Assembly (NCBI RefSeq): GCF_000196555.1
Contig: NC_015067.1
Location: 1,950,001 to 1,982,000 of the forward strand
DNA length: 32,000 nucleotides
DNA from: Bifidobacterium longum subsp. longum JCM 1217
GTDB lineage: Bacteria; Actinomycetota; Actinomycetes; Actinomycetales; Bifidobacteriaceae
Direction: 5' to 3'
Below, piece by piece: positions 4,259 through 28,234 of this stretch; position 1 is the first letter of the stretch; every line of letters starts with the position of its first letter. Position numbers and translations under genes: made by a program. Under the pieces are notes generated by a model, which was not told the origin of the DNA, ran no database searches, and saw only the letters and a program-made list of their open reading frames with translations.

Positions 4259-4286
4259 TTGACACACTAACTGTATCTGATATGAT
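4259..4286 (+). promoter_or_regulatory. Candidate sigma-70-type promoter of the Rrf2 gene
   Basis: TTGACA at 4259-4264, a 16-bp spacer, then TATGAT at 4281-4286, about 60 nt upstream of the ATG at 4347. Confidence 0.45.
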
Positions 4287-4324
4287 TACAGTATCATAAC
4301 TGTACACATCATAGTTACAGTATC
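4268..4324. promoter_or_regulatory. Two tandem 28-bp operator-like palindromes (TAACTGTA-N10-TTACAGTATC)
   Basis: Unit 1 is 4268-4295 (TAACTGTATCTGATATGATTACAGTATC). Unit 2 is 4297-4324 (TAACTGTACACATCATAGTTACAGTATC). Each contains ACTGTA-N12-TACAGT. Unit 1 overlaps the putative -10 box and unit 2 covers the likely transcript start. Confidence 0.6.
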
Positions 4325-4346: not shown

Positions 4347-4769
4347 ATGAACGGCGACCATTCACTGGCAGTGCACGCATTGGTCTACCTTGACCATCGC
4401 GCCACACACCTGCCCAGTCAGATCCTGGCCGAGAACATATGTACCAATGCGGCGCGCGTGCGCAAAGTAATGCGACCGCTCGCCTCAGCCGGACTCATCG
4501 CCACTAAAGAGGGTGCTGAAGGCGGGTACGCTCTGGCCCGGCCCGCCGCCGAAATCACTTTGCGCGCGGTAGCGGAAGCCACCGGCACCACTTTTGTGAA
4601 AGTGAACTGGACACCGGGCGACGTACACGAGGACTGTCTGGTGTCATCTTCAATGGGCGCAGTGATGAACGACATCTATGCCGGGCTCAACCGCACTTGC
4701 CTCGAACAACTCGAACACACCACCATCCACGACATCACCGAACAGATATTCAGCGAGCGCAAAGGCTAA
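4347..4769 (+). CDS. Rrf2 family transcriptional regulator
   Basis: 140 aa with an N-terminal winged HTH typical of Rrf2 proteins (LAVHALVYLD ... QILAENICTNAARVRKVMRPLASAGLIATKEGAEGGYALARP). GGTAAGGAGG lies 8 nt upstream of the ATG. Confidence 0.9.
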   Translation: MNGDHSLAVHALVYLDHRATHLPSQILAENICTNAARVRKVMRPLASAGLIATKEGAEGGYALARPAAEITLRAVAEATGTTFVKVNWTPGDVHEDCLVSSSMGAVMNDIYAGLNRTCLEQLEHTTIHDITEQIFSERKG

Positions 4770-7151: not shown

Positions 7152-8078
7152 ATGACTATCACAGTATCCACAGATGGGTCCGCATTAGGGAATCCAAACG
7201 GGCCAATGGGCTGGGCCTGGGCCGATCATGAGCAGAACGCCGGCGGCAAGCCCGGCCATAAGCACGACGACCATGGTTATGATGCGGGCGGCGCGACCAA
7301 CGGCACCAATCAGATTGGTGAGCTGTGCGCAGTGCTGGAAGCTTTGCGAGCGCACCCGGGCCCTGAGCCATTGCTCATCGAATCGGATTCGCAGTACGCC
7401 ATCAATTGCTCGACCAAGTGGGTCAAAGGCTGGAAGAAGAACGGCTGGAAAAATTCGCAGAAAAAGCCTGTGAAGAACAAAGAGCTTATTCAGGCGATCG
7501 ACCGTGAGATCTCACAACGCCCTGGCCCGGTGGATTTCCGATGGGTCAAAGGTCACGCCGGCAACGAGGGCAATGAGTTGGTCGATGAACTGGCACGCAC
7601 CTATGCGGGCGATTGCCGTTCGGGTGCGCGCGACGGCTATCTACCGATTGAAGGCTGGCAGTCGCTGCTGGGCTCCGAATACGCACATGGCACCGATGTG
7701 CCTCCAGACGTGCAATTGGTATTGGACGGCAAAGCGGATGCGGCAAGTTTGCGCAAGCCGGCTGCGGCGACGGATCAGACGGATGCCGCAAGGCCGGAGA
7801 CCAAGTCTTCGTCACCCTTAGCGGCACAATCAACGCAACCTGTACAATCAACGCAACCTGTACAATCAACGCAACCTGTACAATCAACGCAACCTGTACC
7901 CCCCGCAAAGCCCAGCGGGCTGACGGTATCCGGTACGCTGACCTTCTCCCCCGCGCCGAAAACGAGCCCGTATTTCAACGGGCAGCCGATGCCGATCAAA
8001 GGCAGCATCGAAATCGAAGGCTATGTGGACGGCGACGGCAACCTGACCATCACCAACGCACCATTCGTACGACACTGA
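7152..8078 (+). CDS. rnhA: Ribonuclease HI with a ~150-aa C-terminal extension
   Basis: RNase H DEDD residues sit in TDGSALGNP, GELCAVLEAL, IESDSQY and GNELVDELA. ATG 7152 is preceded by GGTGGAG. The ORF-track start at 6984 adds an implausible 56-aa leader. Confidence 0.85.
   Translation: MTITVSTDGSALGNPNGPMGWAWADHEQNAGGKPGHKHDDHGYDAGGATNGTNQIGELCAVLEALRAHPGPEPLLIESDSQYAINCSTKWVKGWKKNGWKNSQKKPVKNKELIQAIDREISQRPGPVDFRWVKGHAGNEGNELVDELARTYAGDCRSGARDGYLPIEGWQSLLGSEYAHGTDVPPDVQLVLDGKADAASLRKPAAATDQTDAARPETKSSSPLAAQSTQPVQSTQPVQSTQPVQSTQPVPPAKPSGLTVSGTLTFSPAPKTSPYFNGQPMPIKGSIEIEGYVDGDGNLTITNAPFVRH
7827..7898 (+). repeat. Perfect 4 x 18-bp in-frame tandem repeat (CAATCAACGCAACCTGTA, encoding QSTQPV x4)
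   Basis: Four identical units counted directly at 7827, 7845, 7863 and 7881, inside the rnhA 3' extension. Confidence 0.95.
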
Positions 8079-11653: not shown

Positions 11654-12778
11654 TCAGGCGGTAAGACGCTTGGTCTCCTCGACGTTGCGCTTGAGTTCGT
11701 CGACGAGTTGGTCGGGGCCATCAAACTTGACCTGCGGGCGCAGGAAGCCGACGAATTCGACGCGAACCTTGTGGTCGTACAGGTCGATCCATTCTTCAGT
11801 GATGCAGTAGGCCTCCACCACACGTTCGTTGAGCCCTGTTTTCTCGCTGAAGGTGGGTTTGGTGCCAATGGAGATGGCGGCGGGCCAACGGTTTTCACCA
11901 TCTACCAGCCAACCGGCATAGACGCCGTCGACCGGAATGTAGCCTGCAATGTCGGAGCCAAGATTGGCGGTGGGGAATCCGATGGTGCGGCCACGCTCCT
12001 CACCGTGCACCACTTCGCCCTCGATGGAGTGCGGAGCACCCAGAATGGCGTTGGCGTCCTGGATTCGGCCATGAGCCAGCAGGTAGCGCACATTGGTGGA
12101 GCTCCATGCGCGCATTGCCTTGGCCTGGTTCTTCTTGCTCCATGCGCGGCGCTCGGCCTTGGTGGCATTGGCCAGCGGGTCGACGGGCTCTCCCCATTCG
12201 CTCGGGGCTTCCGGCTTGAAATCGCGCGGAATACGCACTTCACCCGGGCCACGGTCATCGACCACATCAAGTTCGAATACACCGGTGGCGGCGGCAAGAT
12301 TGGCGATATGCTTCACATCACCTTCTCGACCCTTGCCCATGGCGGCATCCTGCCCAAGGACCAACGTGCGCATACCCAGCTTGCCGGTGAGTCGGCCAAG
12401 GAAGAAAATGTATGACATAGCTGCGAAGGCCAGCGTGTAGTGCACCACCAGCACGTGGTCCACGCCGAACTGTTCCATGCGGTGCAGTCGATCATCCACA
12501 CTGGTCAAGGCTTCGGCATCCACGTTCTGCACCGCGGGTTCTTCGCCATGGTGCGAGATGACCCAGCCGTGCACGAATGCGGGGCGCGGATCAAACAGAA
12601 TCACCACGGAAAAAGCATCATGCTGGTGCGCGAGTTCCACCACACGCTTGATCACCGCCTGATGACCCAAGTGCATGCCATCAAATGCGCCCAATGTCAC
12701 CACGGCCTTCTTATCGTTACTGAACGAGGGCCATTCAATCGAACCTTCGGCGTCAGGGGTCAGGTGCGTGATATCCAT
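11654..12778 (-). CDS. ribF: Bifunctional riboflavin kinase / FMN adenylyltransferase
   Basis: GAFDGMHLGHQAVI (adenylyltransferase domain) and VVHGEERGRTIGFPTANL (kinase domain). It appears longer than typical RibF because of an internal insertion. Confidence 0.95.
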   Translation of the reverse strand: MDITHLTPDAEGSIEWPSFSNDKKAVVTLGAFDGMHLGHQAVIKRVVELAHQHDAFSVVILFDPRPAFVHGWVISHHGEEPAVQNVDAEALTSVDDRLHRMEQFGVDHVLVVHYTLAFAAMSYIFFLGRLTGKLGMRTLVLGQDAAMGKGREGDVKHIANLAAATGVFELDVVDDRGPGEVRIPRDFKPEAPSEWGEPVDPLANATKAERRAWSKKNQAKAMRAWSSTNVRYLLAHGRIQDANAILGAPHSIEGEVVHGEERGRTIGFPTANLGSDIAGYIPVDGVYAGWLVDGENRWPAAISIGTKPTFSEKTGLNERVVEAYCITEEWIDLYDHKVRVEFVGFLRPQVKFDGPDQLVDELKRNVEETKRLTA

Positions 12779-12875: not shown

Positions 12876-14039
12876 TTACGCGAGGGGGAATACGGTGACC
12901 GGCTTGGCCTGATGAGCGTTTGCACGCTCGATAATCGCCGCCACATCATGCGTTTGCGGCACAATGGCGGCAGTGGGCTCGCTGATTGTACGCTCAATAC
13001 GGCGGCCGAAGCGTAATTCGCTGGCCTCCTCAGGAGTGATGTCAAGCGCCGGCATCGCACCTCGAGCGGCCTGTTCCATGGTAAGGGCATGGTCAAGCAG
13101 CCAGTTGCGGCGCTCGTCACCGGCAAGACCTTCAGGAGTGTCCAATACGCACTTGTTGCGCGTGACGGTTTGCCCTTCCCGATTAGTGAACGTCTTCTGA
13201 TCGGTATGTGCGGTGACGGTATGGGTTCGCGTGTCAAGCATCGCCTCAGGAGCGATAAGTCCGCTGGCATCGTCCGGCAACGCGAATCGGCCGACTCGCG
13301 TACGGCGCAAACGGGTCAGGTATCCGCCGACGCCAAGTTCTTTGCCGAGATCGCGGGCGAGCGCGCGGATATAGGTGCCCGATGAACAGCTGATCCGCAC
13401 GTCAACATCAAGTGCGGGAATCGCTCCCGTGTTCGCGTCTTCCCGCAATGGTTCAGCGGCCTGCTCCCCTGCTACGAATCCGCTGCGGATATCCAGCACG
13501 GTGAATTCGCTGATGGTGACCGGGCGGGGTTTGAGTTCCACATCCTTGCCTTCGCGAGCCAAGTCGTAGGCACGCTGGCCGTTGATTTTGATGGCGGAGA
13601 ACGTATTGGGGACTTGTTCGATATCGCCGGTGAAATTGGTGGCGATGGTGCGTGTGAGCAGGTCTTGCCATGAGGCAGTTGGTAACGCCGTTGGTTCGCC
13701 GCTCTGGCCACCCTCAGTCAGCTGCGCTGATAGCGTTTGCCAGCGGGAGCGGGCTTCGTCATCGACAAGCACCTCGCCTTCGGCATCGTCGGTAGTGGTG
13801 CGCAGGCCGAGGCGTATGGTAGCCTCGTAGGTTTTGTCATGCGCCACGATGGCGTTGAGCAGTCGTGTGGCGTGGCCGAAGGCGATGACCAGCGTGCCAG
13901 TGGCCATGGGGTCAAGGGTGCCGGCGTGACCGACCTTCTTGATGTGCAACGCGCCGCGCACGGCGGCGACGGCGTCGAAACTGGTCACGCCTTGCGGCTT
14001 GTCGATGATGAGCAGACCGCTGGGGGTTGTATGAAGCAC
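12876..14039 (-). CDS. truB: tRNA pseudouridine(55) synthase
   Basis: LLIIDKPQGVTSFD and HAGTLDPMATG motifs. The GTG at 14039 lies 1 nt after the rbfA stop. The ORF-track start at 14213 would overlap rbfA by 173 nt. Confidence 0.9.
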   Translation of the reverse strand: MLHTTPSGLLIIDKPQGVTSFDAVAAVRGALHIKKVGHAGTLDPMATGTLVIAFGHATRLLNAIVAHDKTYEATIRLGLRTTTDDAEGEVLVDDEARSRWQTLSAQLTEGGQSGEPTALPTASWQDLLTRTIATNFTGDIEQVPNTFSAIKINGQRAYDLAREGKDVELKPRPVTISEFTVLDIRSGFVAGEQAAEPLREDANTGAIPALDVDVRISCSSGTYIRALARDLGKELGVGGYLTRLRRTRVGRFALPDDASGLIAPEAMLDTRTHTVTAHTDQKTFTNREGQTVTRNKCVLDTPEGLAGDERRNWLLDHALTMEQAARGAMPALDITPEEASELRFGRRIERTISEPTAAIVPQTHDVAAIIERANAHQAKPVTVFPLA

Positions 14040-14040
14040 A

Positions 14041-14514
14041 CTACTCCTCGTCAGAGTCGTCTTCGAAGTCGTCGCTGGGCTCGTCGTCATGCTTGTACGG
14101 ATCGGCGTCGCCGGCGTACTGGGCGGTGGCGCGAGCACGGGCGAGTTCTTCGTCACGCTTCTTGGCCACGGCGAGAATGTCTTCGATCTCGTGAGCCTCG
14201 CCGGGCACTTCATCGAACACGAATTGGAGCTGCGGAGTCAGACGCAGGCCAGCCTTGTGGCCCACCAGAGAACGCAGGTGGCCCTTGGCCTGATCGAGTG
14301 CCTGCTGGGCGCGCTTGCGTTCGCCTTCCTCGTGGCCTTCGTGGCCGAGCTGGGTCCAGTAGACCTTGGCGATCTGCAAATCGTTGGTCACACGAACTTC
14401 GGTGACGGTGATGCTGGCGAGTCGCTTGTCATGCAGTTCGCGCTCAATGGAGGAGGCGACGACACGCTGAATCAAGGCCGCAATACGTGCGGCGCGCGGG
14501 TTGGTTCCTGCCAT
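14041..14514 (-). CDS. rbfA: Ribosome-binding factor A
   Basis: RIAALIQRVVASSIERELHDKRL ... ITVTEVRVTNDLQIAKVYW is typical RbfA, here with an acidic C-terminal tail. Confidence 0.95.
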   Translation of the reverse strand: MAGTNPRAARIAALIQRVVASSIERELHDKRLASITVTEVRVTNDLQIAKVYWTQLGHEGHEEGERKRAQQALDQAKGHLRSLVGHKAGLRLTPQLQFVFDEVPGEAHEIEDILAVAKKRDEELARARATAQYAGDADPYKHDDEPSDDFEDDSDEE

Positions 14515-14534
14515 AGGAATTTCCTTTTCTAGAC

Positions 14535-14658
14535 TTGAGCCCCCTCTGACGAGGGGCTGCCGAACGCAGTGAGGCTGGGGGAGAGAAAATCATGGAACTA
14601 CCATGTCTCTCCCCCAGTCAGTCTGCGGCTGACAGCCCCCTCGTCAGAGGGGGCTTAA
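14535..14658. repeat. 124-bp nested palindromic (REP/MITE-like) element filling the infB-rbfA spacer
   Basis: The ~50-nt arms (14538-14586 and 14606-14655) are roughly 80% complementary by manual alignment. Each arm also has its own hairpin (AGCCCCCTC-GTCA-GAGGGGGCT at 14634-14655). A central hairpin CTGGGGGAGAGA / TCTCTCCCCCAG lies at 14575-14617. Confidence 0.8.
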
Positions 14659-14664
14659 CAATGA

Positions 14665-17592
14665 CTACTTGCGCTCGACTTCCCGCATCTCGAAGGTCTC
14701 GATGATGTCGCCGAGTTCAATGTCGTTGAAGGTGCCGAGGTTGATACCAGCCTCGTAGCCTTCCTTGACGGACTGAACGTCGTCCTTGAAGCGACGCAGC
14801 GAGGAGATCTCGAGGTCGTTGACCGTGGCCACGCCGTTGCGCAGGATACGGCACTTCGTACCACGCTTGACCTCGCCGTCCTGCACCATAACGCCGGCGA
14901 TGTTGCCGAACTTGGAGGAGCGGAAGATCTCGCGGATCTCGGAGTGAGAGGTGACGACCTCTTCGTATTCCGGCTTGAGCATGCCCTTGAGGGATGCCTC
15001 GATGTCTTCGATCGCACGGTAGATGACCGAGTAGTACTTGATCTCCACGCCCTCGCGCTCGGCGAGGTCCGCGACCTGACGGTTCGGACGCACGTTGAAA
15101 CCGATGATAACGGCCTTGTCGACCGTGGCCAGGTTGACATCATTCTGGGTGATCGCACCGACGCCGCGGTGGATGACCTGGATGCCGACCTCGTCGGATA
15201 CCTCGATCTTCATCAAGGAATCCTCGAGCGCCTCGACAGAACCGGACGAATCGCCCTTGATGACAATATTGAGCATGTCGATCTCGGACTCGGCGAACTT
15301 CTTCTTGAAGTCCTCGAGGGAGACGACCTTGCGACGCTTGGCCAGCTGGGCGGCACGCTCGGTGGCCTGACGCTTCTCGGCAATCTGGCGAGCGGCACGA
15401 TCATCGGAGGCGACCAGGAAGAGGTCACCGGCGGTGGGCACGGAGGTCAAGCCCAGCACCTGAACAGGTGTGGACGGACCGGCCGCTTCCATCGGCTGAC
15501 CGTTCTCGTCGAGCATGGCACGCACGCGGCCGTACGAAGTGCCGGCCACGATGGCATCGCCCACGTGGAGCGTACCCTGCTGAACCAGCACAGTGGCCAC
15601 GGCACCACGACCCTTGTCGAGTCGGGCTTCGACGGTGGCACCACGGGCGTCCATGTCGGGGTTGGCGCGGAGGTCCAGCTCAGCGTCAGCCGTGAGCAGC
15701 ACGGCTTCGAGCAGCTTGTCGACGTGCAGGTTCTGCTTGGCGGAGATGTCGACGAACATGGTGTCGCCACCATACTCTTCAGGGACCAAGCCGAACTCGG
15801 TGAGCTGGCCGCGGACCTTCTCCGGGTTGGCACCGGGCACATCGATCTTGTTGACGGCCACGACGATCGGCACCTTGGCGGCCTGAGCGTGGTTGATGGC
15901 CTCAACGGTCTGGGGCATCACACCATCGTCGGCGGCGACCACGAGGATCGCGACGTCAGTGAGCTCGGCACCACGGGCACGCATGGCGGTGAACGCCTCG
16001 TGGCCAGGGGTATCGAGGAAGGTGATCTTGCGCGGTTCGCCTTCAAGGTTCACGGTGACCTGGTAGGCACCGATGCGCTGGGTAATGCCGCCGGCCTCAC
16101 GTGCGATGACGTTGGTCTTGCGGATGGTATCCAGCAGTCGTGTCTTACCGTGGTCGACGTGGCCCATGACGGTAACGACCGGCGGGCGAGGCTTGAGATC
16201 CTCGTCATCCTGCAGTTCTTCCTCGTCAAGGTTGATGTCGAACTGCTGGAGCAGTTCCTTGTCTTCCTCTTCTGCGGAGACGAGCTGGATGTTCCAGCCG
16301 ATCTCTTCGCCCAGAATCTGGAAGGTCTCCTCATCCAAGGACTGGGTGGCGGTAGCCATCTGACCCAGGTGGAAGAGCACGGTGACCAGCGCGGCCTGGT
16401 TGACGTTGATCTTCTCCGCAAGATCGGCCAGGGACGCGCCCTGACGCAGACGGATGGTCTGGCCGTTGCCGTTGGGGATGCGAACGCCGCCGATGGTCGG
16501 TGCTTTCAGCTCCTCATACTCATGGCGCTTTGCCAGACGGTTCTTACGGGCCTTTGAAGACTTGCCGCCCTGACGTCCGAATGCGCCTGCGGCACCGCCG
16601 CGACCGCCGCGACCGCCGCCACGTGCGGGACCGTTGCTCGGTGCACCGCCGCCCTGGAAGTTATTGCCGCCGCCTTGGCCCCCACGGAAGCCGCCGCGTG
16701 CGCCGCCCTGACCGGCACCCTGGGAGCCGCCGCCCTGACCCGGACGGTTGTGGCCCCACTGGCCGGGACGCGGACCGCCCTGACCACCTTGGCCCGGACG
16801 ACCGCCACGGAAGCCGCGGCCCTGCCCCTGGCCTTGGCCGGGACGGCCCGGACGACCGCCACGACCGTTATCAGCAGTCGGACGAGCCATCGGATGCGGA
16901 CGCGGAATATCACCCGGCGTCGGGGTGTGCATACCCTGCTTGCGGGAGAACGGGTTGTTGCCCGGGCGCGGGCCCTGAGCGTGCGGGCGCGGAATCGCAT
17001 TTGAAGCGGCATTGCCGCCATTGGCACCGGCGCCGCCCTGAGCGTGCGGGCGCGGAGCCGAAGCATTGCCGCGGTTGTTCTGATGCTGAACCGGCTGGCC
17101 ATTGTTCGGACGGCCCTGGTTGTTACGACGATCGTTGTTACGGCGATCGTTCGGGCGACTCTGACGACCGTTCTCACGGCCTTCGCGATTATCGCGACCA
17201 TTCTCACGGTTGTCGTTCTGACCGTGGCGGCCGGGGGTCGGCATGCCGGGGCGTGCGCCGCCCTGCGGACGCGGTGTCGGTGCACCCGGAGTCGGAGCCT
17301 GCTGATGTGCCGAGGCAGGCGATGCCTGACGTGCGGGAGCGGCCGGAGTCGGTGCGGAAGATGAAGTGGAAGCCGGGGCCGAAGGTGCGGCCGGGCGGCG
17401 CTGCTGCACGGGCTTGGAATCGCCCTTGGCGTTGTCCTTGGCGAACTCTGCCTTCAGACGCCGGGCTACCGGCGGTTCAATCGTAGAAGAAGCGGACTTG
17501 ACGAATTCTCCCATGTCCTTAAGCTTCTCAAGCACGGTTTTGCTATCGACATTCAAAACCTTAGCCAGTTCGTATACGCGTGGTTTCGCCAC
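14665..17592 (-). CDS. infB: Translation initiation factor IF-2
   Basis: GTP-binding domain [29 protein letters not shown]. The N-terminal region is long and Gly/Arg/Pro-rich. The GTG start is preceded by AGGAG. Confidence 0.97.
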
Positions 17593-17861
17593 TAATTACT
17601 CCTATTCTGTGACCACGCGCGTGCATGGGCGTGGTCAGTTGGTGATGACGGCAAGCCTACCCTGTCTCATCGTGCGACCATGATCGTGTTACCTCGTCTC
17701 TGGTGTGGGCGATTTCGCGCACACTGCGCCAGCCCACATACGCCAATCAAGCATACTCATAGCGCTGGATAGCGTAGACGCAGCGAGCCGCGCCATTGCT
17801 GACGCGGCTCGTATCAGGAAATAATGCGCCCTGAAGATCATTCGCCTTCGAGCCCGGCGGC

Positions 17862-18929
17862 CTATTCGGCTTCCGGAGCAGCAGCCTCGGCCGCAGCCTG
17901 GGCGGCCTTTTCGGCGGCGACTTTCTTGGCATGGGCCTCGGCGGATTCGATGCCGATCTTCCAGCCGGTCAGCTTGGCTGCCAGTCGTGCGTTCTGGCCT
18001 TCCTTGCCGATGGCCAAGGACAGCTGGTCGTCGTGGATGAAGGCGATGGCGGTCTTGTTCTTCTCGCTGATCACCTGCACGCCGGTGGCCACAGCCGGGG
18101 ACAGCGCGGCTGCCACGAACTTGGCCGGATCGTCGGAGTAGTCGACGATGTCGATCTTCTCCGGGCCAAGGTTCTCCATAACGGCACGCACGCGAGCGCC
18201 GCCGGGGCCGATCAGCGCGCCCTTCGGGTTCACGCCATCGGTGTTGGCCTTGACCGCGATCTTGGTGCGGGCGCCGGCCTCACGAGCGATGGCCATGATG
18301 GACACGGCACCGGAGACCAGTTCCGGCACTTCGCGCTCGAACAGCTTGCGGACCAGCTCCGGGTGGGAGCGGGACACCACGATTTCCGGGCCCTTGATGC
18401 CACGGGCCACGTTCACCACGTACACGCGGATGCGTTCGCCGTGGCGGTAACGTTCGCCGGGCACCTGCTCACGGCGAGGCAGAATGGCTTCGACATCGCC
18501 CATCGCGACATGCACGTTGGAGGGGTCGGAAGCATCCTGCTGGATGATGCCGGTGATGAGCTTGCCCTTCTGGCCGGAGAACGCACCGAATACCTTCTCA
18601 TCTTCGGCGCGGCGGAACAGCTGGGTGATGACCTGGCGTGCGGTGGCTGCGGCGAGACGGCCGAAGTCACGCGGGGTGTCATCGTATTCCTCGCCCAGCT
18701 TGGGAACGGGGTAAGGGTTGTCTTCGGTGGGTTCGACCGGAATTTCGTCGGCGGCCCACACGGTGAAGTTGCCGGAACGTTCGTCAAGCTCCACGCGCGC
18801 GTGCTTGGCGGCGTGCGGGGTCTTGAGGTAGGCGAGGCGCAGGGCCTCTGCCAGCGCATCATCCAGGGTTTCGGGGTCGATTCCTTGCTCGGCGGCGAGC
18901 TTGTGTATTCCTGTCAGGTCCAGTTCCAT
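17862..18929 (-). CDS. nusA: Transcription termination/antitermination factor NusA
   Basis: S1 and tandem KH domains are recognisable (GERYRHGERIRVYV, VSRSHPELVRKLFEREVPE, LIGPGGARV, AIGKEGQNARLAAKLTGWKI). AGGAGG RBS upstream. Confidence 0.97.
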   Translation of the reverse strand: MELDLTGIHKLAAEQGIDPETLDDALAEALRLAYLKTPHAAKHARVELDERSGNFTVWAADEIPVEPTEDNPYPVPKLGEEYDDTPRDFGRLAAATARQVITQLFRRAEDEKVFGAFSGQKGKLITGIIQQDASDPSNVHVAMGDVEAILPRREQVPGERYRHGERIRVYVVNVARGIKGPEIVVSRSHPELVRKLFEREVPELVSGAVSIMAIAREAGARTKIAVKANTDGVNPKGALIGPGGARVRAVMENLGPEKIDIVDYSDDPAKFVAAALSPAVATGVQVISEKNKTAIAFIHDDQLSLAIGKEGQNARLAAKLTGWKIGIESAEAHAKKVAAEKAAQAAAEAAAPEAE

Positions 18930-23671: not shown

Positions 23672-23701
23672 GCGGTGACGGGGCCACTCTGCATTGAGTG
23701 G

Positions 23702-23849
23702 TCTCTCCCTCGGTCAGCCTTACGGCTGACAGCTCGAACGCAATTAAGGACAGCTTTCCAGCTGCCATTTTATTTGCTCACTGTCGTTCGCCTTCGCCTA
23801 AAAACGCCTCCGGCGTTTTCTTCACGGCTCAGCTCATCAGAGGGGGCTT
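23702..23849. repeat. Half copy of the 14535-14658 palindromic element, interrupted by ~94 bp
   Basis: TCTCTCCCTCGGTCAGCCTTACGGCTGACAGCTC ... CAGCTCATCAGAGGGGGCTT aligns with the right arm of the infB-rbfA element (TCTCTCCCCCAGTCAGTCTGCGGCTGACAGCCCCCTCGTCAGAGGGGGCTT). CAGCTC occurs at both junctions (23730-23735 and 23830-23835). Confidence 0.6.
23796..23820 (-). terminator. Candidate terminator of the transglutaminase / ATP-grasp operon
   Basis: AAAACGCC-TCC-GGCGTTTT hairpin. On the minus strand it reads GAAAACGCCGGAGGCGTTTTTAGG, about 45 nt after the stop at 23860. Confidence 0.5.
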
Positions 23850-27047: not shown

Positions 27048-27205
27048 CGTGCCTGCTCCTTGCTGTGGCGGCTTCTGTGGCTTCAAGCGGTTAGGCGTTT
27101 TGAGCGCACGCTGACGCCGCAAGCCGTAACCGGGTTTGATGGTTTCAACCTAAGGCGGACCCGTTTCAACAAACGCGCGAGAATGTTACAGGCAGGTCAC
27201 TTCGC

Positions 27206-27313
27206 CGGCCGCGTGCATCTTGACGACCGCACTCATCTCGCCGACCACACGCATCTTGCCGACCGCACGCATCTTGACGACCGCACTCGTCTCGCCGACC
27301 GCACTCGTTACAA
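27206..27313. repeat. Six tandem 18-bp repeats, consensus CGACCGCAC[T/G]CATCT[C/T]G[C/A]
   Basis: Units counted at 27206, 27224, 27242, 27260, 27278 and 27296. The last unit degenerates into GTTACAA. Confidence 0.9.
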
Positions 27314-27316: not shown

Positions 27317-28234
27317 ATGGCTATGACACGACTGCGCATTGACTTGGCCTACGACGGCGGCGGATTCTATGGCTGGGCCAAACAGCCCAATCTTCGTACG
27401 GTGCAAGGCACCATTGAAGATGCGCTGCACAAGGTGCTGCGGGTGCCGGCCGATGACGCGGCCGAACCGTTACGCTTGACGGTGGCTGGACGCACCGACA
27501 CCGGTGTGCACGCCTCCCACCAAGTGGCGCATCTGGATGTATCCGATGAGGTACTGAATCGCTGCGTAGGTCACATGACCATTCCGGTCACCGAGGCGCT
27601 GACTCGCAGACTCAAGGCTGTGCTGCCTTCGGACATCGTCATTCATGGCATTGCCGTAGCTCCGGTCGGCTTCGATGCCAGGTTCTCCGCATTGGAGCGC
27701 ACTTATGTGTATCGGGTCGCCGATCGTTCGTCTGAGGTCGACCCGCGCCTGCGTGGATGCGTACTTACCGTGGATGAAGCGCTGGATCTGGAGCTTATGA
27801 ACCGCGCAGCCTCATTGACCATCGGCCTGCACGATTTTGGTTCCTTCGCCACTCCGAATCCGGGAGGCACTACGATCCGTGAAGTCAAGACCGCCTATTG
27901 GCGGCGGGTGCCGATCACTCCCCTAGTACCGGATGAGATGGCATCGCATGAAGCATATCGGACTCCGTCGCTGGAGTCCGGCCTGGTAGTGTTCACGATT
28001 GTGGCGGACGCCTTTGCCCGCAATATGGTGCGCTCCCTGGTCGGCTCATGCATCAAAGTTGGTTCGGGACGCAAATCACTGGAGTGGTTTGCCGGCAAAA
28101 TGGCCGAGCCAGTACGTGAAGGCTCAAGCGGGCCGATTGCGCCGCAGGGCCTGACTTTGGAGCATATCGCATATCCCGCCGATGATCAGCTGGCCGCAAG
28201 AGCCGAGGCCATTCGGGCCGTACGTACGTTGTAG
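27317..28234 (+). CDS. truA: tRNA pseudouridine(38-40) synthase
   Basis: RIDLAYDGGGFYGWAKQ and GRTDTGVHASHQV (catalytic Asp) motifs. The start could be the second ATG at 27323 if the mRNA is leaderless. Confidence 0.93.
   Translation: MAMTRLRIDLAYDGGGFYGWAKQPNLRTVQGTIEDALHKVLRVPADDAAEPLRLTVAGRTDTGVHASHQVAHLDVSDEVLNRCVGHMTIPVTEALTRRLKAVLPSDIVIHGIAVAPVGFDARFSALERTYVYRVADRSSEVDPRLRGCVLTVDEALDLELMNRAASLTIGLHDFGSFATPNPGGTTIREVKTAYWRRVPITPLVPDEMASHEAYRTPSLESGLVVFTIVADAFARNMVRSLVGSCIKVGSGRKSLEWFAGKMAEPVREGSSGPIAPQGLTLEHIAYPADDQLAARAEAIRAVRTL

Follow-up and report, generated by a model that had tools for sequence, protein, structure and literature searches.

Palindromic repeats of the REP and MITE types are well studied in Proteobacteria and hardly at all in Bifidobacterium or the gut Clostridia. 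REPINs or BIMEs are paired inverted REPs of Pseudomonas and Enterobacteria that are mobilised by RAYT Y1 transposases, stabilise upstream mRNA and reduce translation when they lie within 15 nt of a stop codon. The ERIC/IRU and Correia-type MITEs are imperfect palindromes of 127-150 bp found in transcribed intergenic regions, with ERIC and Correia elements reported as RNase E or RNase III targets that modulate the expression of flanking genes. For the BOX elements of Streptococcus pneumoniae we know of no dedicated transposase. Long target duplications of 24-29 bp, generated at palindromic XerC/D-type sites, are a property of the IS1202 group (ISNCY).

The element that fills the spacer between infB and rbfA in the 32-kb stretch of the Bifidobacterium longum JCM 1217 genome analysed here (the window) behaves like REPIN/BIME, ERIC, Correia or BOX elements. 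The reading that we favour, with some reserve, is that a REPIN/BIME- or MITE-like mobile repeat, palindromic and non-autonomous, abundant in gut Oscillospirales and present in several Bifidobacterium species, has a resident copy here, which acts through a hairpin in the operon mRNA. All of the surrounding genes are on the minus strand, with nusA upstream, followed by infB, and with rbfA, truB and ribF downstream (Table 1), and the canonical orientation of the family (H1 to H4) is at this copy the minus strand, i.e., the mRNA sense of infB-rbfA. In its architecture two inverted GC-rich hairpins, H1 and H4, bracket the small variable hairpins H2 and H3 and a central purine/pyrimidine stem, P.

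An inverted-repeat search recovered outer arms of 22 nt (14535-14556/14637-14658; 95% complementary) and inner arms of 34 nt (14553-14586/14606-14639; 76% complementary), the latter enclosing a perfect 12-bp centre (CTGGGGGAGAGA/TCTCTCCCCCAG at 14575-14586/14606-14617). Either strand of the 153-nt spacer gives a single long hairpin, with an MFE of -95.5 kcal/mol for the mRNA-sense (minus) strand (z = -9.27) and -99.6 kcal/mol for the plus strand (z = -10.68), and in neither case were any of 200 shuffles as good. These arms and folds bear out the 124-bp nested palindrome filling the spacer at 14535-14658 that a first-pass annotation of this DNA had described, and the folding that it proposed as a check duly returned the long hairpin. 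Its three local hairpins are perfect in the centre (12 bp) and on the right (9 bp), with the left one, at 14538-14558, being imperfect by one missing G. The two alternative folds that it envisaged both exist but are not equivalent, the long hairpin (-91.4 kcal/mol) being favoured by ~22 kcal/mol over a structure made of the local hairpins only (-69.8 kcal/mol), with H1 by itself giving -18.5 kcal/mol. The two folds have practically equal energies in a Clostridial copy (-76.1 for the long fold and -75.8 for the local one). A covariance model of the family (R1, see below) scores the copy at 101.9 bits on the minus strand (E = 4e-27) and 91.9 bits on the plus strand, and it is the only significant family copy in the window, which holds one fragment in addition.

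Table 1. Features of the infB-rbfA element, its surroundings and its relatives (positions in the window, in nt; family modules are given on the canonical strand).
Feature	Position	Strand	Sequence or remark
nusA	17862-18929	minus	
infB	14665-17592	minus	
infB stop codon	14665-14667	minus	UAG; 9 nt upstream of H1
rbfA Shine-Dalgarno and start codon	14512-14526	minus	AAGGA 14522-14526, AUG 14512-14514; outside the hairpin, at least 11 nt downstream of H4
rbfA	14041-14514	minus	
truB	12876-14039	minus	
ribF	11654-12778	minus	
Whole palindromic element	14535-14658	minus	inverted repeats, folds, covariance model R1
Family core of element	14538-14655		
H1 terminal hairpin	14634-14655	minus	AGCCCCCUC-UGAC-GAGGGGGCU; perfect 9-bp stem, 4-nt loop
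H2 small hairpin	14617-14633	minus	GUCAG-CCGCAGA-CUGAC; sequence varies across family, helix 2 covaries
P central 12-bp stem	14575-14617	minus	CUGGGGGAGAGA / UCUCUCCCCCAG; helix 3 in covariation analysis
Apical 5-bp hairpin	14591-14605		CAUGG-UAGUU-CCAUG; enclosed by P
H3 region	14559-14574	minus	CCUCACUGCGUUCGG; weak hairpin in this copy
H4 terminal hairpin	14538-14558	minus	AGCCCCUC-GUCA-GAGGGGGCU; imperfect, one C fewer; inverted copy of H1
Decayed family fragment	23701-23849	plus	P3' TCTCTCCCTCGG; H3 hairpin TCAGCC-TTAC-GGCTGA; truncated terminal hairpin (…ATCAGAGGGGGCT)
Family H1			AGCCCCCUC-UGAC-GAGGGGGCU
Family H2			hairpin, sequence variable
Family P, 5' strand			UGGGGGAGAGA
Family apical region			10 to >110 nt
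Family P, 3' strand			UCUCUCCCUCCG
Family H3			variable
Family H4			CCUCCCUC-GUCA-GAGGGAGG
Family member at infB-rbfA spacer, L115 (B. longum-like MAG)			84 bits
Family member at infB-rbfA spacer, L133/L134 (90%-identical RbfA)			45 bits; ~200 nt
Family member at infB-rbfA spacer, L136 (B. myosotis)			40 bits
Family member at infB-rbfA spacer, L135 (B. callitrichidarum)			23 bits; T-run after H4

The terminal 19-mer of H1 (AGCCCCCTCTGRYGAGGGG) is identical in the infB-rbfA copy and in Clostridial copies, and in species-representative genomes (one genome per species) it occurs in at least 120 stretches against a roughly estimated chance expectation of ~17. Most of the hosts among the matches listed are MAGs of Oscillospiraceae, Faecousia, Acutalibacteraceae and Ruminococcus, which often carry numerous loci each (at least 15 in MAG CAMJJL01) and in which contigs end inside the repeat, such that the family breaks MAG assemblies. 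Seven Bifidobacterium hosts are also among the matches listed, namely B. saimiriisciurei, B. stellenboschense, B. miconis, B. catulorum, B. rousetti, B. pluvialisilvae and a B. longum-like MAG, the last of which has the same infB-rbfA copy and no fewer than three additional ones, whole or half (L065, L088, L115). A minority of the 19-mer matches consist of H1 and a T-run only and are ordinary terminators in unrelated taxa (L031, L032, L034), with the remaining loci having, when read on the canonical strand, a common H1-H2-P-H3-H4 layout (Table 1). Elements are 104-250 nt long and contain no ORF, and some subfamilies have additional outer inverted repeats; H1 and H4 differ among subfamilies (e.g., GGCUCCCUUU…AAAGGGAGCC), yet match each other within one element. 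Modules are identical across two phyla, the first 48 nt of a B. rousetti copy (L082) being the same (48/48) as in an Oscillospiraceae copy (L011). Such identity implies either that the family has recently spread by horizontal transfer between gut bacteria or that a common activity mobilises it. The H3 of the infB-rbfA copy is of the same sequence type as that of two Oscillospiraceae copies (L068, L089).

The 19-mer scan, the shared layout and the covariance-model hits support the proposal of the first-pass annotation that the palindrome belongs to a dispersed REP/MITE-like family. The related arm at 23702-23849, on which it had based the idea of a dispersed family, fared less well: with a covariance-model score of 7.4 bits (E = 0.66) a full second copy at this position was rejected, leaving a degenerate fragment with a 33-nt match of 85% identity to the element (BLAST E = 6e-4 within the window) and a co-linear 17-nt match of 94% identity (E = 0.22). 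Its parts lie ~90 nt apart with a terminator-like hairpin between them, and it is antisense to the flanking genes. This locus could not have carried the claim of a dispersed family alone, and is consistent with past family activity in the genome of the window. Literature searches on the sequence of the element, on MITEs or REPs of Bifidobacterium, on REPIN/RAYT systems in Actinomycetota or Bacillota and on terminator-targeting MITEs found the family named nowhere, and a large hairpin-forming repeat family common to Bifidobacterium and the gut Clostridia has apparently gone undescribed hitherto.

Left-half elements (H1-H2-GGGGGAGAGA) are common in Bifidobacterium (L065 2445-2552, L088 1181-1298, also L027, L083 and L014), those in L065 and L088, which belong to the B. 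longum-like MAG, being directly upstream of a Shine-Dalgarno sequence and ATG; the gene that follows in L088 is, judging from its N-terminal residues, presumably leuD. BLAST searches of plasmid and phage collections gave no match to the element. A scan of IMG/VR viral contigs matched five, four of them with left-half elements that abut a putative tRNA 3' end (…GGTGCCTCCGGTGGGACTCG) and differ in the length of the G-run in H1 (L142, L143, L145, L146). Prophage/host junctions, and not copies borne by phages, are the probable explanation.

Model R1 was built from 18 copies, mostly Clostridial, and a search of 100 loci of ~8 kb each gave 220 hits on both strands, corresponding to at least 81 distinct copies, many of which lack the exact 19-mer, and further copies were found besides. 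Five helices are common to the family, with 92.4% of alignment cells pairing compared to ~55% in slid controls. Double-sided changes were seen in 36 of 38 pairs (799 cells), counts that are inflated by the alignment (A3) being fitted to the model and including both strands of many palindromic copies, and none of 500 shuffles reached the paired or covariation values. Rfam 15 returned no family match in the window, in 18 family-bearing loci or in a long copy, the sub-threshold matches being generic hairpins (miRNA precursors) far under the threshold.

Copies are intergenic, typically 10-100 nt from gene ends, and show no orientation bias with respect to neighbouring genes (16 co-oriented, 16 anti-oriented, 18 convergent and 10 divergent, using crude gene calls), which argues against a strand-specific RNA function for the family in general. 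Several copies occur per 8 kb in L036, L071 and L078, and on the minus strand of L108 (~920-1460) there is a tandem array of four to five units from two subfamilies with CGTATAT spacers. Copies of a Clostridial 'shell' subfamily, which has outer repeats (CAGGCTGTAGAAAAAC… / …TTTTTCGACAAGCTG), lie between perfect direct repeats that each comprise an entire hairpin and measure 23 (L073), 25 (L069), 25 (L079) and 30 bp (L086), with a displaced-flank control giving 0 of 90. No direct repeats could be recognised flanking most short copies, and at the infB-rbfA copy neither a target-site duplication nor the outer 'shell' inverted repeats were recognisable. The duplicated unit in L079 is a terminator hairpin, a T-run following the second copy only, and in L069 it is the H1 of another family member, representing a nested insertion, with a related genome (L017) providing the empty site for the entire L069 cluster. 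At another pair of neighbouring genes, L071 and L029 have members of different subfamilies in between and L072 is an empty site, with no spacer. The intergenic location, absence of strand bias, tandem arrays, hairpin direct repeats and empty site together indicate a mobile non-autonomous REPIN/MITE-like element. Mobility is established for at least one subfamily, with terminators or family hairpins as its targets, insertion taking place at the hairpin and duplicating it in its entirety.

All-against-all clustering of ~750 ORFs from the ~8-kb loci revealed no transposase or recurrent neighbour gene (largest cluster seven members), and the ORFs between adjacent copies resemble housekeeping genes by sequence with no transposase among them. 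A small protein encoded in four Clostridial loci (L086 3279-3746 and homologues in L064, L100 and L103), not adjacent to elements, is presumably a DUF559/Vsr-type endonuclease. As a tentative hypothesis, which we regard as possible, the repeats may constitute a hitherto undescribed family of palindromic mobile elements with five helices that is associated with the gut and spans two phyla (Bifidobacterium, Oscillospirales), in which an enzyme recognising an extruded hairpin or cruciform, be it an intrinsic terminator or part of another family member, would cut at its base such that the whole hairpin is duplicated, the 23-30 bp of the duplications tracking hairpin size. Structure-directed integration of this kind would explain why copies are nested or in tandem, why they favour gene ends and why different subfamilies are present at the same post-infB hairpin site in sister species, and if true it would constitute a new mode of target choice and a general route for terminator remodelling. 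The unusual traits of the family (five-helix covariation, cross-phylum modules and hairpin-length duplications) come from a handful of Clostridial examples.

Compared with the described systems, the closest likeness in form is to the REPIN/BIME elements, with two inverted GC-rich palindromes (H1 and H4, inverted copies of one hairpin) forming a ~100-120-nt hairpin with a local-hairpin alternative, in intergenic positions that are often within operons, in either orientation and sometimes clustered. The element differs in having the extra helices H2, H3 and P, in the long target duplications of one family subset (Y1 transposition makes none) and in its Actinomycetota and Bacillota hosts. REP superfamilies are defined by an unpaired GTAG or CGTC tetranucleotide at the foot of the hairpin, in a survey whose text contains neither the word 'Firmicutes' nor 'Actinobacteria' (PMC3733652). 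The element has no GTAG, and GACG/CGTC is confined to the point where loop meets stem in H1/H4 instead of forming an unpaired foot tag, such that it falls outside the REP definition. The ORFs of the ~8-kb loci yielded no RAYT gene. With the ERIC/IRU and Correia elements it has in common a similar size, dispersal, a lack of coding capacity and an imperfect palindrome giving a long RNA hairpin in polycistronic mRNAs; there is no evident sequence relationship, and those elements make short TA duplications and have Proteobacteria as hosts. Like BOX it is modular, with mutually pairing ends, a variable middle and stable intergenic stem-loops, but the modules and sequence are different and BOX, which is restricted to one genus, has a variable number of boxB units rather than a fixed five-helix plan. 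The family duplications of 23-30 bp recall those of the IS1202 group in being long and coinciding with a palindromic target. Members of that group are autonomous, encode a DDE transposase and make duplications of constant length, whereas in the family the length follows hairpin size. Most of the MITE criteria apply: the element is short and non-coding with H1 and H4 as terminal inverted repeats, and in other genomes the family has many dispersed copies and differs in presence or absence among relatives (MAG CAMJJL01, L017, L072), with no parent insertion sequence having the same terminal repeats being seen within the ~8-kb loci.

At the RNA level, the infB-rbfA copy is expected to be transcribed within the nusA-infB-rbfA-truB mRNA and to fold there into a ~50-bp hairpin (-91 kcal/mol). 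From this we infer that it probably serves as a barrier to 3'-to-5' decay or else as a site at which a double-strand-specific (RNase III-type) enzyme processes the operon mRNA, either of which would uncouple infB expression from that of rbfA-truB. An RNase III or RNase E site, a 3' stabiliser and a partial terminator are all plausible functions by analogy, and the hairpin may also hinder terminating ribosomes because it is so near the infB stop codon. Reportedly, REP/BIME hairpins stabilise upstream cistrons in E. coli, and REPs within 15 nt of the stop codon are said to lower translation there. H4 is followed by CAAGUCUAGAAAAGG, with no U-tract in the mRNA sense, and a terminator scan of the infB-rbfA region found only a weak internal 5-bp hairpin; with no U-tract after the hairpin in the JCM 1217 genome, canonical intrinsic termination is therefore unlikely. 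According to a B. breve transcriptome paper, transcript ends in that species are often at GC-rich stem-loops that lack T-tracts, which would fit pausing or processing at the infB-rbfA hairpin. Within operons that encode essential translation factors, the family gives rise to hairpins of very high stability, and in B. longum the element is a candidate control point for the ratio of IF2 to RbfA/TruB expression.

The copy could instead be selfish or neutral, a dead insertion tolerated in a non-essential spacer with no effect on the operon, as might be expected of a family that lacks orientation bias, occupies many unrelated intergenic sites, can be absent from orthologous sites and has left a decayed fragment in the window. 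We consider this rather unlikely, as a hairpin of this stability 9 nt from a stop codon in a polycistronic mRNA would be unlikely to be free of effect, and as the element is fixed in the genomes sampled. An identical RbfA sequence occurs in ~65,000 index blocks, the named RbfA relatives being all Bifidobacterium, and the element was present in all 12 genomes sampled, comprising 10/10 with identical RbfA and two with 94%-identical RbfA. Two alleles exist among the identical-RbfA genomes, differing by four substitutions, and the three of these that lie in stems all pair as G-U in the sense RNA, so that the changes are compatible with pairing. Also against a neutral insertion, no fewer than four related lineages have kept family members in this spacer (Table 1), with other bifidobacteria having different large hairpins at the post-infB spot.

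Such retention qualifies the contrast, drawn in the first-pass annotation, between a repeat family and a locus-specific structure, in that the repeat family stands and the element is also kept at the same spacer in several related species. The comparison with relatives that the annotation suggested showed the element to be absent from this spacer in three Bifidobacterium lineages, in which its place is taken by unrelated hairpins that do not match the model, two B. adolescentis-type lineages having a common unrelated 15-bp hairpin after infB and B. angulatum having other hairpins. In the infB-rbfA spacers of L137/L138 and L140/L141, which represent Bifidobacterium lineages free of the element, a different conserved hairpin whose loop varies (GGAACGCCCACAG…CUGCGGGCGUUCC) occupies this position. 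Strong hairpins following infB appear to characterise the genus as a whole, and in the B. longum group it is this repeat family that supplies them. Where the family does occupy the spacer its copies are in sense orientation in all lineages, with H1/H4 sequences that differ between species, a difference that could reflect repeated replacement at the locus rather than conservation. Their origin may have been one old insertion, arm-to-arm homogenisation or repeated hairpin-targeted replacement.

A locus-specific cis-regulatory RNA with an origin in place, whether an attenuator, a terminator or an RNase III site, and with only a secondary resemblance to the dispersed repeats, would account for the same position in several species, for the canonical strand being sense in all five lineages and for the T-run after H4 in B. 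callitrichidarum (L135), as in a terminator. The infB-rbfA junction of E. coli likewise contains an attenuating terminator after infB. We nevertheless judge an origin in place to be improbable, since copies from another phylum, located at unrelated sites, have almost the same H1-H2-P5' sequence, the mostly Clostridial covariance model recognises the infB-rbfA copy at 102 bits, the JCM 1217 hairpin has no U-tract and the element is missing from the B. adolescentis-type and B. angulatum spacers.

Further observations concern the adjacent junctions of the operon. In two close relatives, L115 (6899-7032) and L133 (795-920), on the minus strand of each, a right-half element (P3'-H3-H4) is antisense at the rbfA-truB junction and overlaps the truB start; in the genome of the window this junction has no spacer. 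Several RbfA variants of 200 aa (P0001-P0005, P0008) have an arginine-rich C-terminal tail instead of an acidic one, a pattern suggestive of a frameshift, or of an error in sequencing, close to where rbfA and truB overlap. At the nusA-infB junction (17786-17898) the covariance model has a weak match of 10.1 bits (E = 0.12), which is GC-rich and hairpin-forming and is not significant.

BIMEs are binding sites for gyrase and IHF, and a function at the DNA level, with the palindrome or a cruciform serving as a host-protein binding or cleavage site or as a recombination target, would be in keeping with an element that is symmetric and equal in both orientations, with tandem arrays resembling BIME clusters and with hairpin-length duplications that imply an enzyme recognising extruded hairpins. 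It has, in our view, only a slim chance of being the main explanation, as no candidate protein was found and the G-U-type asymmetries in P, which are conserved on the canonical strand, suit a single-stranded nucleic acid more than recognition as a duplex. That the element is a small structured RNA gene in its own right, or a ribozyme, is highly improbable in spite of the strong covariation and the CUGACGAG / CUGAUGAG strings in H1, as there is no promoter-like site, no strand bias and no Rfam match beyond generic sub-threshold hairpin hits, and a hammerhead, in which CUGANGA and GAAA cores are joined by stems I-III with a cleavage-site triplet, was rejected with the hammerhead-like CUGAYGAG lying inside the closed H1 hairpin, no conserved GAAA core and no Rfam hit.

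The window contains other repeats. An IS30-family element at 1472-2870 has 31-nt terminal inverted repeats (87% complementary) and a 434-aa ORF with HTH_38 and rve (integrase core) domains, and was rejected as a parent of the palindrome since its terminal repeats are unrelated. At 7808-7915 there is a perfect 18-bp tandem repeat (ACAATCAACGCAACCTGT) of about four full units with degenerate ends, and at 27204-27304 an 18-nt periodic repeat (GCCGACCGCACGCATCTT-like) in four overlapping 47-nt copies that are 77-89% identical, just upstream of, or overlapping, an ORF starting at 27317. Two 28-nt direct repeats at 4268-4324, each palindromic (TAACTGTA…TACAGTATC) and together just upstream of an ORF at 4347-4769, look like paired operator sites.
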